From contig NW_019028989.1 of assembly GCF_002105155.1 (NCBI RefSeq), forward strand, positions 806,001 to 870,000: 64,000 nt of DNA. Direction: 5' to 3'. The notes beneath the pieces were generated by a model that was not told where the DNA came from, ran no database searches, and was given only the letters and a program-made list of their open reading frames with translations. Source of the DNA: Lobosporangium transversale (taxonomy: Eukaryota). Position numbers and translations under genes: made by a program. This document shows positions 17,465 to 25,184 of this stretch, piece by piece; positions within the stretch are counted from its first letter, which is position 1, and each line of letters opens with the position of its first letter.

Positions 17465-20097
17465 TTATTGAGTTATAACCGCGTTTTCCTTGAGTGCTTC
17501 TAAAATTGCCAAAGCTGTTTCATCCCCAACTGAGTTGGATCCCAAGTCCAAATTCGTTAAAGTTGCATTGGTCTTGAGCGCTTCTGACAATGCCAGAGCT
17601 CCTTCTTTTCCAATTGAGTTGTCCCACAAGTCCAAATTCGTTAAAGTTGCATTAGTCTTGAGCGCTTCTGACAATGCCAGAGCTCCTTCTTTTCCAATTG
17701 AATTGTCCCGCAAGTTCAAAGTTGTTAAAGTTGCATTGGTCTTGAGCGCTTCTGACAATGCCAGAGCTCCTTCTTTTCCAATTGAGTTGCGCCCCAAGTT
17801 CAAAGTTGTTAAAGTTACATTGGTCTTGAGCGCTTCTGACAATGCCAGAGCTCCTTCTTCTCCAATTGAGTTGTCCCACAAGTCCAAATTCGTTAAAGTT
17901 GCATTGGCCTTGAGCGCTTCTGACAATGCCAGAGCTCCTTCTTCTCCAATTGAGTTGCCCCACAAGTTCAAAGTCGTTAAAGTTGCATTGGTCTTGAGCG
18001 CTTCCGACAATGCCTGAGCTCCTTCTTTTTCAATTGAGTTGCTCCCCAAGTTCAAATTCGTTAAAGTTGCATTGGTTTTGAGTGCTTCTAACAATGCCAG
18101 AGCTGCCAGAGCTCCTTCTTTTCCAATTGAGTTCCACTCCAAGTTCAAAGCCGTCAATGCCGTGCTAGCCTTGAGTGAATTTACGAGTCCTTGTAATCCA
18201 ATGGCTCCAGCCGATTTAGCGTTCACCTCATAGGTTAGCTTATGAAGGTGTGATGATCTTCTGGGCTGTAAACTGAGAAGCTTTATGAGATCCAGAGATA
18301 GAGTAATATGGATTGTTTTCATATTACCGAGCTCTATGATGCGAATAAGTCTTTCATATCGCGCGGATGTTAAAGGTACTTTTATGTCGGTGTTTCCTTG
18401 AGTCCGTATAAGCCCAAGTCGAAGATTCGATACATTCGACATCGCCAAAGCATTCTCAAATACTTCAAGATCGATCTCTGTCCAATCCCAACCGAATGTG
18501 ATATCCAAGTCGTAAATACATCTTGCAGTGGTTAGGGCATCGAAAAACCCTCTAGCTCTGTCTCTGGATGCCAATGTGATAACCACTTTACCAAGATGCG
18601 CGTTATATTTACCACTATTCATCTCCACTGCATTTACAAATGCTTTTTGTTCTTTTTCCTCATATATTGAACGACAGTGGGCGAGACAAACCCATTTGGC
18701 ACGGCCTGTTTCGGTCATGATCCTGTACAAATCCCCAAATTGCTTGTCTTCATCATTAGTTCGAAGGTATGTGCCAACGTTTTGAAAATCAGATCCTTCC
18801 AGTCCATCAGAGTCGTCGATTGTAGTAATATTGCTCAAGGTTGAGTCCTCCTTAGAGAGTGCTTCCATATAGTCGATTGAACAATCAATGTCGGCATCTA
18901 TCAAATCTGGGGATGGTGCCAGAGATGCAGACGAGGACATTCCTAGCTTGAGCCACTGTAAAAGGATGAACATGTGCTTTCCATACTTGCAGAAGAATTC
19001 TGTGCCGCTTGGGATCTCATACCCACCATGTTTGATGATATGGAATGGGCTCTGACTATTCTTGCTTATCATTTCAGTGTGGTCTCCACATTCACATAGA
19101 AAATGAAGACGGAACTTGTTCTTCAAGACATTCATTTGGTCCCACTTGGTGTGATCGACAGGTATAATGATAAATAGTCGGGGAGTTGAATATCCGTGAA
19201 GCTCGATATTCTGGGTGAGAATACCATCAACATGCTGTTGAAGCAAGGCAAGTTTGTCGAGGCTTTGATGCTGCACTTTGTCATCCTTCTCCTTAGCTTC
19301 CAATTGCATCCTAGCCATATTATATTGCAGTTTAAGCATCTCAATGTCTTTCTCTTTAGCCTCCAATGTCAGGTTAAGCATTTTATCTTTCAGTTTAAGC
19401 AGCTCGCTGTCCTTTTCTTTGGTTTCCAGTAGTAGATTAATCATCTTATCGTCCTTCTCTTTGGCCTCCAAGAGTAAATCCGCAACTTTCTCAAGGTTAG
19501 AGTTGACCACCTCGATTTGTGCATTGCCATGGGTAATAAGGAATGAATTGAAAGATTGAATCAAGTCTGATAATGGTAAAAGAGTATCCTGAGAGGCCTG
19601 CTTTGCCGACTTTCTCAATGTAGGCAAGTGGATGACGGTGTTATGATTGCTGTTGCTATTGCGGCTGCAGTTGGTATTGATGCTGCTGATATTGCTGGTA
19701 TTGCTGGTGTTGTTGGTGCTGATGTTGTCGCTGTTGCCTAACTGCGGCGCTTCTGTAATGACATCCAGGATCTTGTAAGGATAGAATGCAATGCATGGAG
19801 GCTCTACCCTAATAAAGTAAATCGCGTCAGATTGAATTTTTTTCGTTCGCTTTCCAAAGATAACTGATAGAGCGCACCATAATCAGTTACATACCTGTTC
19901 CCATTAGGGTCTATGAGGAATGGGATGGGAAGTTCCTCCAGCTCGAATCGCTGTGCATCTGGAAACATGTCTCGAATGTCTTGCAGACTCACATGGCAGG
20001 ATGAGTCGGCATTGCTTGCGAAGGTAGAAGCAATCCTGACACAAACTTTTTTAATAATGCCAGCCCTTCGGAATTGTTGGTATTGATGCTCCGTCAT
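17465..20097 (-). CDS. Coiled-coil plus 'LHFLCECG' domain plus RI-type LRR protein (848 aa); exons 20097-19895, 19808-17465
   Basis: One GT-AG intron joins MTEHQYQQFRR... in frame to the 720-aa ORF; EAKEKD coiled-coil repeats; eight 28-aa LRR units; no P-loop seen. Confidence 0.9.
17500..18170. repeat. 84-bp tandem repeat array (8 units) encoding the LRRs
   Basis: Near-identical 84-nt units such as GCGCTTCTGACAATGCCAGAGCTCCTTCTT; one unit has a 9-bp duplication. Confidence 0.95.
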
Positions 20098-20324
20098 GTC
20101 GGTAGAAATTCGATGGATGAGGACAGAATGAAAGGTTTCATTTCTCTTTTGTGCACCCTTTTTCTTAAAGCCCTACTGTTACTTTCTAACCACAACAATA
20201 AATGACGTGTTCCTTCTCTGGGCAAAATTGGTGAGCCACCTCCTTGTGTGCATTTTGTGGATATCACACCTTTTCCCATTCAGTTGTCGCTTTATCCCTT
20301 CGTCCGTAACAAGGGCAAATTTGC

Positions 20325-21168
20325 CATTATAAATGGGCTTAAAATTCAGCAATCCATTGGCATTGTCTTGAAATTTCATTTTAATGTCGAAATAAATGAC
20401 CGAAAACTAAATTGTCATGGAGCTATCCTGGCTTCTTTATTTGTGCAAATAAAAAACTCATGAAAACTTTCGCGTGACCCTAGCATCCTCTTGGGAGCCC
20501 ATTGTATTGTCTATTTATTGACTGGTCTAATAGCAGTGATAATATTCGCCGCCGTAGCCTCGACTTGAAAGGAGGGCAATCTGAGTTGATTCATTCTACC
20601 GCGCCATGGAGCTTGACTAACTTGATCTTTTCTTGTACAGCTCGGCAAGACTTGGTTTGTCACATCGTTTGCTTCCTCGTCTTCTTGCGTTCCCTTGATA
20701 TATCTGGGTTGGTAACCACCGCTAATAGAGTTTGTTGGCCCTGTGGAAACCAGAGGGAACTACACCAACATATCATACCCAAGGTGATACATATATCTAT
20801 GTTGAAGTGAATGGTGAAATGCCTGTGCGTGATTTAGATGTAATGGACATTTACGGCGAAAGAAAGTATTGAAAGGATGTGAGCGATTATGAGAGTAAGG
20901 AAGAAGGGGTTTGTATCCCTTTTCAAGACCTTGGCAACAGAGCATGAGTGGCAGTTGTGATCGCAAGTTGATTCCGGAGAGTCCGCATGAGTTGAACATA
21001 ACAATAGTCATAGTATTAAAGACCCTATCTTTCATGCATGGTATGTGCATTATTATTGTTTTCAGACCTGGCACCAACCATGCGAGGTATTTTTTCCGGC
21101 GTAGGGGGTCCCTAGTGTTATACAACCAGACAGAAAACTTAATAGACATACAAGCACACTAAGAGTGA
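20325..21168. repeat. Right arm of ~840-bp inverted repeat (pairs with 14644-15486)
   Basis: Ends ...CTAAGAGTGA, the reverse complement of TCACTCTTAG... at 14644. Confidence 0.97.
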
Positions 21169-21539
21169 CAAATAATTTTTTTTTTCTACGTGAGTAAACT
21201 GGAGGATACTGATCAAACAATCAAACAGCTGACGTGCTTCTTTTTTGTCTGCACATGCCTTCTTGCATCGCGAGTTTTTTTTATTGTTTCGAGAATATTT
21301 GGCGGTACATGCATGGAATGGGGCGTGGATTCCTTTTTTGTTCATCAATCACTATCAGTTGTGTGTACACGAACATGCACCAGGCTATTGAATAAATAGC
21401 TGAAGCAACTCTTTGGTTTCTGCACACGTAGAATGCATTTTGCATCGCGGCGTTTTTTTTCGTCTTCTAGGCTATTTCATTTTACTCCAAGCAATAAGCG
21501 CATGCAACTACATCACTCCTATCTCCGCCATTGATGCCG

Positions 21540-21828
21540 GGACCTGAGAGCCAACGAATATCTCTGCTATAATGCAATAGTACTTAAGCTGTTGGAGCAA
21601 AGAGCGACATCTGAACCCATTCTCTCATACAAAAGACTTTTTTTTTCTTTTGTTGTTAGTTTTGACAAGGGTGTAATCACCTGTTTCAAAACCAGCTCCT
21701 ACACACCGAGTCAAATCTGTCAATGTATTGTATTATTCATTACCCCTGTTCAAAATTATAAATCTTCTTTTATTCATTAAATTCCTCACAAAGCACAAAG
21801 CAAGGGCCAGTGCAAACAAAAGAAACTG

Positions 21829-21861
<33 letters not shown>

Positions 21862-22230
21862 TGTAACAAAGGATCGACATCGACACTGTATGCTGTATCT
21901 GGAGATGATTTTCGAATGCTCACTTTGGTATCTCAATGCTATTGTTTCTGCTATTGACTGGGACAAAACCCCAATCCAAACAAAGGAACTGAATAAAGAT
22001 TGATGTGGCCTGTGAAGCAAAGGATCGACATCACAACTATATGAGACAATGTTAAAATTCATCATCAATCCAGGATATAAAAAGGGATCATTGTCTTCCT
22101 CCTTTCCCGCTCGCTCACTCCAAAGTCCCATTCCTTTTACCACTGCCACTTGTTCCTGTATCTTCTCCTCAATATCCTTTATCTATTCACTTTGGATCTT
22201 TAAGCCATAAAAAAGCTCATCCACTTATAC
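21540..22230 (-). pseudogene. Degenerate hAT-like transposase remnant
   Basis: Broken frames give GLWSERAG...FISWIDDEF (compare hAT D.WS..., HWID..F), SIAETI and SDVALCSNSL (compare DV.TRWNS); many stops. Confidence 0.45.
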
Positions 22231-22309
22231 ATTTGCCGCTCTTTTTTTTATTTTTCATCTCTTTCATCATTTTTTCCTTTTTTCTTTCTCTTTCGCTTAG
22301 ATATTGACC

Positions 22310-24185
22310 ATGGGGCTGAAGTCCTTCTTCAAACTGGTTGCGGATCGCGGGGTTTTACCTTCGGAAACTGACGTGGGCGGTTTCTTGGCGGCAAATCCTG
22401 ACCATCCTGCCCATGTAGATCTCTTCGGTACGTTCTATTACGACATTCATCGTAGAGTCGTCCATGCAAATATGAAAAAAAAAATCCATCATTGATGTAG
22501 GAATGTCCCTGGCTATCGAGATAAAGGATCTTTTCAAAACGGACAATCTGGCTATACATATTGATGGGAGACCTTGTACTGAGATAGAAAAAGCAAGAGC
22601 AGAACGGCAAGCCATAAGACAAAAAAATATGGACGCTTTGGAGAACGATATGAGCACCTTCGAGAGAAATTCCCGGAGTGGGGTATGGACTTGTCCTCAA
22701 GTCATGAGGCGCATCCAGAAGGGTCTTTGAGAGTGTCCAGGGAAAGAATCAGCTGTCAACAGACCTTGGCTCTGTCTTCGATGGCTGTCTGTGTGCATAT
22801 GAAGCGGACCCATGCATAGAGTGCCCTAATGAGAAGAATGATAGGATCGTAATATCCCAAAATTCTGATTTTTTTGCGTACGAACGAGTCTGCATCCTAG
22901 TGCGACTCCTTCCACATCGTAGACGGAAGTTTGGGGTTTACGATGTAGACAACATTATCCAAGCACTAAGCCTGTCATCACATGTTTGAGTGTGTACAGG
23001 GAACAAAAGGGGTTTTGATACAGGCTCTCTTTTGTGACATTGGAAGTGATCGCATGGTTCATGGATATCGAGACAAAGTATCCTTGCAGTCACAAGGCAA
23101 AGATATAACTCAGTTGAAACTCAAAGGAACGATTTCTACCAAAAATCTTGTTCTGAATCTACTTGCCTATGATACAACCCAGACGAAGAGACAGCAGCAG
23201 TCTGACGTAGATGAAGAAGACGCCAGCCAAGAACTGGAGCTTTCTCAGGGATTTCTCAACACGACGTGTTCAGAGGCGGCCGGTGAAGACCTAACAGATG
23301 AAGACTACGCAAACATAAACTGGAAGAGGAGCTCCAAACTGCTTGAAAACGTTGAGCTCACATTCAACGAACCAGGGCGATGCCCATCCGCAAACACCAC
23401 AACTATTGTCGGATGTGATCCTGGTATTGTTAACGCCCTTACGTTTTCCTCACTGGACCCTCACAACCCTAACTTGCGGCAAACGGTGAAGGTGAGAAGC
23501 AGGTTCTTGTACCTTCCCGTCCTCTGGTTCAATCACCTGTTGAATAAAAGGAAGCGTGAAAAAGGAATGATTGAGGTTGAGAGCGCCATCCCTGTGTTTG
23601 GAAGGGATACAGACAGGATCAACGAATTTGGATGTGCTTCAAGAGTTCTACGAATCCAGATGGCATCTGAAAAAAAAATGGGACCTACGAAAGGCTCAAC
23701 GAGCTACGTTCGACTACGTGGTACAGCGAGTGTTGAAGATGCTTGGGATAAAGGAGTACTTGTCGTCGGCCTAGGGTCCTTTGAAAGTAGTAAAGGAGTT
23801 CCCAGCAAGCACACTGCTATAACGAGACATCTTGTCACACAGGTATGGCTTTTTTTAAAAAAGTAAGCAAAGCTGGAAAGCCATAGAATCCTTGCTAATA
23901 AACGACTGCCATTTGAAACGCTTAGGTCAAAGCACGAGGACACTTCGCTGTAGGGGCGCACGAATTTTACACCAGCGCCCGACTCTTTGCGATAGCTTTT
24001 TAGAGACGGTGTACCCTCGCTCTAAATATTGCCGGGCATGTAAGGTATTCTTCGACCGTGACGCAGTAGGGGCGGAAAACATCGCAAGAATCGGTCTTGC
24101 TCAAATTGAGAGGCAAGAGAGGCCTGCAAAGTACAAGCCCACGGAAGAGTCGCCTGCTCCGGCTGCAAAGCGCGCACGACGCTAG
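22310..24185 (+). pseudogene. PIN (XPG/FEN1-like) nuclease fused to Fanzor/TnpB RuvC; frameshifted and probably internally deleted
   Basis: PIN motifs MGLKSFF, HVDLFG, IHIDG, EAD, VISQNSD. Fanzor motifs GTIST..L.L, IVGCDPG (RuvC-I D, 23417), KKWD.RKA, VVGLGSF, HEFYTS (RuvC-II E, 23962), C..C zinc finger, DRD..GAENIA (RuvC-III). Intron 23843-23925. Confidence 0.85.
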
Positions 24186-24376
24186 ACACAAGTATTTGGG
24201 TGCCGGCACACCCACAAAAAACTTGTAAGTTCTGTTTATTTTCGTCTCCTGTATCCTCTCTACCTAATTTTTTGCCCCTGAATTTCTGGACTAACTTTAA
24301 AAACCGTACAGATCAACAGATAATTGAGTCCAATCTTTGTTGAGACGCGTTTCTAGACTATGTGGCTGAGGCCGAG
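24182..24376 (+). ncRNA. Candidate Fanzor omegaRNA (scaffold plus putative guide) with internal intron 24225-24311
   Basis: Starts at the Fanzor stop codon; closing stem CTAGACAC/GTTTCTAG with two internal hairpins; GTAAGT...GACTAAC...CAG intron signals. Confidence 0.45.
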
Positions 24377-24518
24377 TTCAAATTCCGATGGCAACTTTAA
24401 AAAGGGACGTGTCGATGCTGACTGGTTCGCTTGATATTGGTGAATTGGGTTACTGTACCACTCTGTTTGCTTTCATCATCTCATTTCACCTCCATCTTCA
24501 TCTGCTCTACTCTTCATC

Positions 24519-24591
<73 letters not shown>

Positions 24592-24644
24592 CTTTCTTTC
24601 TTTGCCCATCTTTTCTTGCTGTTTCGTACAACCTCATCTCAGCC

Positions 24645-25184
24645 ATGCCTCGTTCAACTTTTGTCAACCACGACTTTGTCCTCACTGTGCTTGCTATTTA
24701 CGGTGCAACAGTCGCTTTCACTCGTTGGTTCCCTGAAGCTGACCTTGTTGCAGTCGAGGCCCATCCTTCGACCTATGTCAAGACTTTTGAGGCTGCGTCT
24801 CAGTCCCAATTGACACTTTATGCCGCCCATCTTGCTATCGATATCATCCGTGTCTTATCTCTTGCTGTCCTCGAGTCTGCCGCCTTTTCGTTTGCGTTCA
24901 TCGATGATGTCTTTGAGCCCTTCTCGTATGCGTTCATCCTCTTCTCTATGGTCATAGTAACTAAGGATATCTTGATGCTTGGATGCCTCCACGCCTTCCC
25001 TGCATCCAACGACCTTGCCGCTGCCAAAGTTGCAGAGTTGATGCCTCTCTCTGCGACGGTGGAGTACGGTCTTTTGCTTTGCGGAGCCTTGTCCTTGGCC
25101 AAGGGACTTTACCAGTGGACTTATGCCATTGGACGTGACAAGCGTCAGGTCATTGACAAGGAGGAAATCAAGAAGACTCAGTAA
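24645..25184 (+). CDS. Small multi-pass membrane protein (179 aa), function unknown, C-terminal KKxx
   Basis: Intronless ORF with host-like codon usage, about four hydrophobic segments, ends KKTQ. Confidence 0.8.
   Translation: MPRSTFVNHDFVLTVLAIYGATVAFTRWFPEADLVAVEAHPSTYVKTFEAASQSQLTLYAAHLAIDIIRVLSLAVLESAAFSFAFIDDVFEPFSYAFILFSMVIVTKDILMLGCLHAFPASNDLAAAKVAELMPLSATVEYGLLLCGALSLAKGLYQWTYAIGRDKRQVIDKEEIKKTQ

Follow-up and report, generated by a model that had tools for sequence, protein, structure and literature searches.

In Lobosporangium transversale, a broken copy of a multi-copy Fanzor1 element likely carries at its right end an omegaRNA gene that is split by an intron-like stretch, which the spliceosome would remove; reading the DNA, we give this interpretation a probability of about 0.6. 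The element lies in a 64,000-nucleotide stretch of contig NW_019028989.1 (assembly GCF_002105155.1, positions 806,001 to 870,000, forward strand), called the window here, to which all coordinates refer. The presence of an intron-like stretch within the probable omegaRNA region, as the initial annotation had proposed, is supported because its position, donor, branch site and upstream hairpin are conserved in two distant homologues (L001 and L002), and also because its interior is more variable than its surroundings among sister copies of the element. The features concerned are as follows.

21896..21906, + strand: weak candidate for the element's left end, TA plus a short stretch that matches the right end in inverted orientation
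22310..24185, + strand: broken Fanzor1 gene with a FEN1/XPG-like N-terminus; the RuvC residues D 23417, E 23962 and D 24060 are present
23843..23925, + strand: phase-0 coding intron, at the same position in L001 and L002
24197..24214, + strand: 6-bp hairpin GGGTG/CACCC with a C-Y-G-G loop, likely stem-loop 1 (SL1) of the omegaRNA
24215..24224, + strand: A-rich linker and end of exon 1, exactly 10 nt in 3/3 loci
24225..24311, + strand: intron-like GT-AG stretch of 87 nt, with donor 24225-24230, branch motif 24289-24295 and acceptor 24309-24311
24312..24322, + strand: putative exon 2, the right end of the element, 11 nt, ending in TA (likely target duplication); placed from loose ends behind 24322-24324 and from the scaffold fold
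24323..24338, + strand: predicted guide, the host flank behind the right end; placed from position only, on the rule for Fanzors that flanking sequence serves as guide (PMC10432273)

The gene displays the RuvC D-E-D pattern of Fanzor1, with the E shifted beside the zinc finger; this residue sits in HEFYTS, and in homologues it stands six residues ahead of the first zinc-finger C. Stops, frameshifts, the loss of the first CxxC (the first zinc-finger pair) and a gap of ~460 residues in the middle of the gene relative to homologue P0002 show that this is a dead copy and not an intact nuclease gene. Its full-length relatives measure 1000-1180 aa, its homologues are of Mortierellaceae origin, and the family numbers 882 representatives at E<=0.001. 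A structural model of homologue P0008 (pLDDT 66) matched four SpuFz1 chains at E<=7e-5 (best E 5e-6) and matched Fanzor2 and TnpB at E 0.02 only, so that the modeled fold places the family nearest Fanzor1, rather than Fanzor2 or TnpB. The PpFz1 protein is a distant match to the family (E 0.04), and a near-identical L. transversale protein is labelled FZ1 in the table of Saito et al. 2023 (PMC10432273). No relatives were found in the viral and prokaryote collections searched, a single-sequence PDB search was uninformative, and the window contains no second copy of the element. A FEN1/XPG-like (PIN) nuclease domain was additionally observed at the N-terminus, spanning 22310-22980 in the window, 288-1055 in L002 and 453-1451 in L004; the matches are weak (FEN1, E 9e-4 by profile; XPG_I, E 9e-4), and the literature searched held no mention of such an N-terminus on Fanzor1.

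Downstream of the stop codon (TAG, 24183-24185), the sequence reads GTAAGT at 24225, GACTAAC at 24289-24295 and CAG at 24309-24311, in agreement with the positions and the 87-nt length in the initial annotation. The donor begins 39 nt behind the stop, and the first AG after the branch motif, at a distance of 16 nt, is that of the acceptor CAG. Together with a plausible length, a conserved position and a divergent interior, the GT donor consensus, branch motif and YAG give this stretch the properties of a U2 spliceosomal intron. On both strands together (128 kb) there are 20 GTAAGT sites, and a full hairpin stands ahead of 1/20 of these. A search of 23500-25000 against Rfam returned five weak matches, none near threshold; a group I intron or IStron was rejected, as no Rfam family came near threshold and the signals are spliceosomal.

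One metagenome scan yielded four loci, two of which (L003 and L004) end inside the gene and were left out of the 3' comparison. The remaining two, L001 and L002, have readable 3' ends and share 33% and 38% identity with the query protein. Both repeat the window's layout of a stop, a 6-bp hairpin, a 10-nt linker, GTAAGT, an unrelated interior, a branch site and AG; in each, TTGTAAGT lies 26-29 nt behind the stop and is followed by a branch motif and TAG. This layout comparison comprises three independent loci only, L001 and L002 without mapped right ends. An alignment of the 3' halves by MAFFT was misaligned and left out, and the comparison was instead anchored at the donor, which gave an ungapped alignment of the three loci. 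The chance of finding GTAAGT in both homologues within the 26-nt slot behind the stop is ~2e-5. A branch site and AG at intron distance arise in 4-7% of shuffles per locus, and the layout with an exact ACTAAC, present in the window and L001, in 0.6-1.1%; L002 has a weak branch site, GCTGAT, which stands 25 nt from the AG taken as acceptor, with another AG 4 nt behind. The intron-like stretches of the two homologues are 78 and 96 nt long, and the interiors of the three loci show no similarity beyond that of shuffled sequence (61, 128 and 225 of 300 shuffles score equally high).

The hairpin ahead of the donor is predicted to form with pair probabilities of 0.8-1.0, whether the RNA is spliced or unspliced. 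Across the three loci, 17/18 cells pair, five of the six pairs have changed on both sides, and one pair is G-U. This degree of covariation was reached by 1-4 of 500 shuffles and was lower in all six slid registers, in a test that uses three sequences only and a register read from the window; the two homologues alone give p values of 0.05 and 0.007. Within the species, changes to the hairpin are single-copy and non-compensatory. Judged by its position, the covarying 6-bp hairpin is likely SL1, which is known as a stem of ~7 bp near the stop codon.

Conserved words at such a place might also act as DNA signals close to the end of a transposon, as transposase sites for instance, with a chance likeness to splice signals and no splicing at all. 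The near-palindromic character of ACTTGTAAGT fits this explanation, as do the few sister-copy differences listed in 24285-24322, which would equally be expected of conserved subterminal DNA. However, donor, branch site and AG keep their order and strand in 3/3 loci while their spacing varies and the interiors are unrelated; this pattern is also that of the family's coding intron, and the hairpin covaries as RNA, the G-U pair included. We therefore regard purely DNA-level signals as quite improbable.

Sister copies of the element were read from assembled contigs of public runs, four of eight in one comparison and two of eight (X2 and X4) in another; X2 is RNA by our guess, and X4 and X5 are DNA. 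At least 14 contigs (4 of X2, 10 of X4) leave the window sequence behind 24313-24324, and each continues for ~250 or more letters unrelated to the window (pooled agreement 0.48-0.6); these counts refer to the contigs listed from X2 and X4, and a comparison of four runs gave the same picture. The element is thus multi-copy and mobile, with a sharp right end and a variable flank. Since the flanks of the sister copies begin to differ at 24322-24324, we place the right end at CAGATA (24322), 137 nt behind the stop, and TGTTGA (24338) and GTTTCTAG (24349) are therefore host flank of one copy. Contig cover ends at 24329 in the runs compared, to which we give no weight.

This end point changes the RNA that had been drawn at first, a three-way junction of ~90 nt with a closing stem. 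Its building blocks exist as described: GGGTG/CACCC forms the first hairpin, TCAACA/TGTTGA is present, 7/8 positions of the closing stem are complementary, and the joined 88-mer does fold as drawn (z -2.3), but with other bounds the signal is lost (z -1.2 to +0.1). The second arm and closing stem (24338-24356), however, fall in the flank, leaving a scaffold of ~50 nt, and the predicted guide begins at 24323 instead of occupying 24357-24376. The expectations set for the paralogs fared similarly: the intron interior is variable and the hairpin and signals are conserved, as foreseen, while the drop in conservation lies at 24322-24324 and not near 24356. Sister copies also bear on the possibility, raised at the outset, that the intron belongs to the 5' UTR of a host gene starting at 24645, whose ATG lies 334 nt downstream on the same strand. 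We reject this reading as hardly credible because the intron lies inside the element, is found with it in front of many different flanks, and recurs in L001 and L002.

The left end of the element may lie at 21896-21898, where 9/11 letters agree with the right end when this is read as its reverse complement, the best TA-starting match in 19500-22310. Comparable inverted matches arise at 0.13 per kb, so this candidate could be due to chance, and it is made weaker by direct repeats that straddle 21896-21906. These repeats are imperfect, occupy 21813-21892 and 21976-22043 and stand 151-163 nt apart. No transposase for the element was found.

Differences among sister copies concentrate within the intron-like stretch. 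Its 54-nt interior holds 19 substitution places and 10/12 listed indel rows, whereas exons and signals, 83 nt in all, hold 10 substitution places (Fisher p 0.002, or 0.013 if the three remaining rows lie outside the interior; the count covers 40 of 43 rows). Variation at the 3' end of the element, where two contigs differ, is understated because variants near contig ends are unlisted. The family's coding intron displays the same pattern as the intron-like stretch. In one X2 contig the 83 nt of this coding intron are skipped, with GT..AG ends, and the skip is listed in 0/3 DNA runs compared.

An X2 contig of depth 33 carries 24195-24313 unspliced, with only 30 letters ahead of the donor, and a contig of similar depth retains the coding intron too. 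The 24224^24312 joint is unlisted among the contigs compared, to which we attach no weight: contigs report presence only, and the overlap of a spliced contig with the region compared would be just 30 + 11 letters. X2 is broken at the donor, one contig stopping at 24221 plus three unplaced letters and the next beginning at 24195; we give this break no weight because an X4 DNA contig also starts at 24195 and the depths (28, 33) fit an extra predecessor.

The unspliced contig, with the proviso that X2 is RNA by guess, would suit an ordinary, though real, intron in the 3' UTR of the Fanzor mRNA. The working omegaRNA would then be an unspliced scaffold of ~140 nt plus flank, and splicing would either compete with it, as in IStrons, or be irrelevant. 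In the unspliced window RNA, moreover, the donor GU is predicted to pair with the leader (0.9-1.0), and masking of this kind could hinder splicing; the GtFz1 omegaRNA, 150 nt long, is reported to be under little constraint behind SL1 (PMC11423790). Against a long unspliced scaffold, the region yields no folding signal (z +0.8), its interior is unrelated across homologues and indel-rich among sister copies, and in five published families (see below), as in the window, acceptors lie 2-12 nt away from the end of the element. We consider this alternative unlikely.

With the intron removed, the joined scaffold is predicted to begin with the 6-bp hairpin and, after a linker that stays single-stranded, to end in a 4-bp stem, the outer pair of which would span the junction, linking the last base of exon 1 to the last base of the element. 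The distance from hairpin to flank is 21 nt in the spliced form versus 108 in the unspliced form, and only after the inferred splice does the scaffold continue to the element end with the flank as guide. The TA at 24321-24322 and a guide from 24323 fit a review according to which the scaffold includes the 3' target duplication (PMC13565253).

We propose that a Pol II transcript would pass through the gene, the right end and the flank, and that excision of 24225-24311 would join the hairpin and linker to the final 11 nt of the element. The product would contain, in order, the hairpin, linker, 4-bp stem and flank as guide. An intact Fanzor encoded by another copy would bind the hairpin, and after trimming of the RNA ends the complex would cleave the empty site, so that repair of the cut would favor renewed insertion; restorative homing of this kind is known for OMEGA systems (PMC13565253). 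The window copy would make no working protein, and its RNA could at most act in trans. With such an intron, the RNA scaffold and the DNA close to the end of the element would additionally be free to evolve separately.

One of the closest known Fanzor1 omegaRNAs is that of PpFz1 from Parasitella parasitica (PMC11423790; PDB 9CF0-9CF3; IDs 58 and 59 in the table of Saito et al.). Its small scaffold consists of a 7-bp SL1, which is the shared protein-bound part, a short linker and a 4-bp SL2 (Xu et al. 2024, PMC11423790); the joined window scaffold is likewise predicted to fold into 6-bp and 4-bp stems. The two differ in loop sequence, in the FEN1/XPG-like N-terminus of the window family, and in that the PpFz1 RNA was mapped in yeast and published as unspliced. 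By our count from the published table and target oligo, its guide begins ~18 nt behind SL1 (PMC11423790). Both yeast-mapped P. parasitica RNAs contain a hairpin, a linker and CAG|GTAAGC, followed further on by CTAAT and a T-rich tract, and the PpFz1 target oligo matches from 6 nt behind the donor-like GTAAGC toward the branch-like motif. These published RNAs possibly represent the same intron retained, with intron sequence serving as guide. The word 'intron' is absent from the main texts of PMC11423790 and PMC10432273.

PpFz1 cuts DNA in vitro with RNA that retains GTAAGC (PMC11423790); unspliced RNA can therefore load, which speaks against splicing being strictly required; in GtFz1, too, a long insert behind SL1 is tolerated (PMC11423790). 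The activity of PpFz1 with a guide from within this region also lends some weight to the idea that GTAAG(T/C) is simply the scaffold end, with the guide just behind it. A variant holds that the first splicing step alone sets the RNA end, as in fungal telomerase RNAs, and first-step-only cleavage is indeed known in fungi (PMC4299874). A guide just behind GTAAGT would be internal to the element, though, and would mismatch the empty site, the first step by itself would leave the hairpin plus 10 nt and zero guide, and a canonical CAG follows the window's branch motif as its first AG. We deem both versions improbable and favor full removal of the intron.

SpuFz1 (Spu-1) of Spizellomyces punctatus (PMC10432273; PDB 8GKH) is the best fold match to the C-terminal half of the family. 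Its omegaRNA lies between the stop and the right end and uses the flank as guide (PMC10432273), but its scaffold is a contiguous 75 nt without intron signals, and the element has 30-nt inverted repeats. In the window, by comparison, 137 nt separate the stop from the end, and the inverted match is at most 9-11 nt. The SPu-1 end, as read by eye, has no such intron layout.

For 16 Mucorales families (Bao and Jurka 2013, PMC3627910, file S2), the final 330-400 letters were also inspected by eye. Five of these (ROr-1, ROr-3, MCi-4, PBl-1 and MCi-1) carry a donor and a branch motif, and their AG lies 2-12 nt short of the annotated end; among the other 11, five have a donor and an unclear acceptor, two have another layout, and none was seen in four. 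These elements differ from that of the window in their loops and ends, and their publication included no study of RNA; the main text of PMC3627910 does not contain 'intron'. The ROr-1 3' end, also read by eye, has two abutting intron-like stretches (AG|GT, zero exon between) before an 8-nt last exon, an arrangement that suggests recursive splicing.

IStrons, which combine a group I intron with an IS605/IS607 TnpB, likewise place splicing and an omegaRNA on one transposon-end transcript, and they already couple self-splicing to the omegaRNA (PMC13565253). There, however, the whole element is a self-splicing intron and splicing excludes guide use, whereas the window has a small, putatively spliceosomal intron inside the guide gene, the removal of which would create the guide. 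Introns in Fanzor coding regions are already known (bioRxiv 2023.06.13.544871). In the literature searched, which left subscription papers, figures and some supplements outside, we found no description of a spliceosomal intron inside an omegaRNA.

A broader proposal, to which we assign even odds, is that Mucoromycota Fanzor1 systems (Mortierellaceae and Mucorales) assemble their guide RNA via the host spliceosome, that the intron must go before the flank guides, and that the published PpFz1 complex is an unspliced precursor with the intron as guide. If true, this would be an RNA-guided nuclease with a spliceosome-built guide, which would connect an OMEGA system of bacterial descent with mRNA processing in the host and offer the host a means of influencing nuclease activity. 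That the same DNA can serve both as a short scaffold and as a long transposon end would then be explained, and the spliced form would predict a very small scaffold (~40-50 nt) across a large family. The prediction and reconstitution of fungal omegaRNAs would change as well, since expression in yeast may retain the intron and misassign the guide.

Other sister copies carry large internal deletions (23044-23859 and 23277-24196, in three DNA runs), and one internally deleted copy retains little beyond the 3' end; these could possibly be ghost-like elements. Another deleted copy lacks 24197-24273, and with it the hairpin and donor, and reaches a depth of 214 in X2 and ~8 in X4 and X5. Elsewhere in the window, 17465-19444 on the minus strand encodes a 659-aa leucine-rich-repeat protein, and 24645-25184 a 179-aa hydrophobic open reading frame without a Pfam match.
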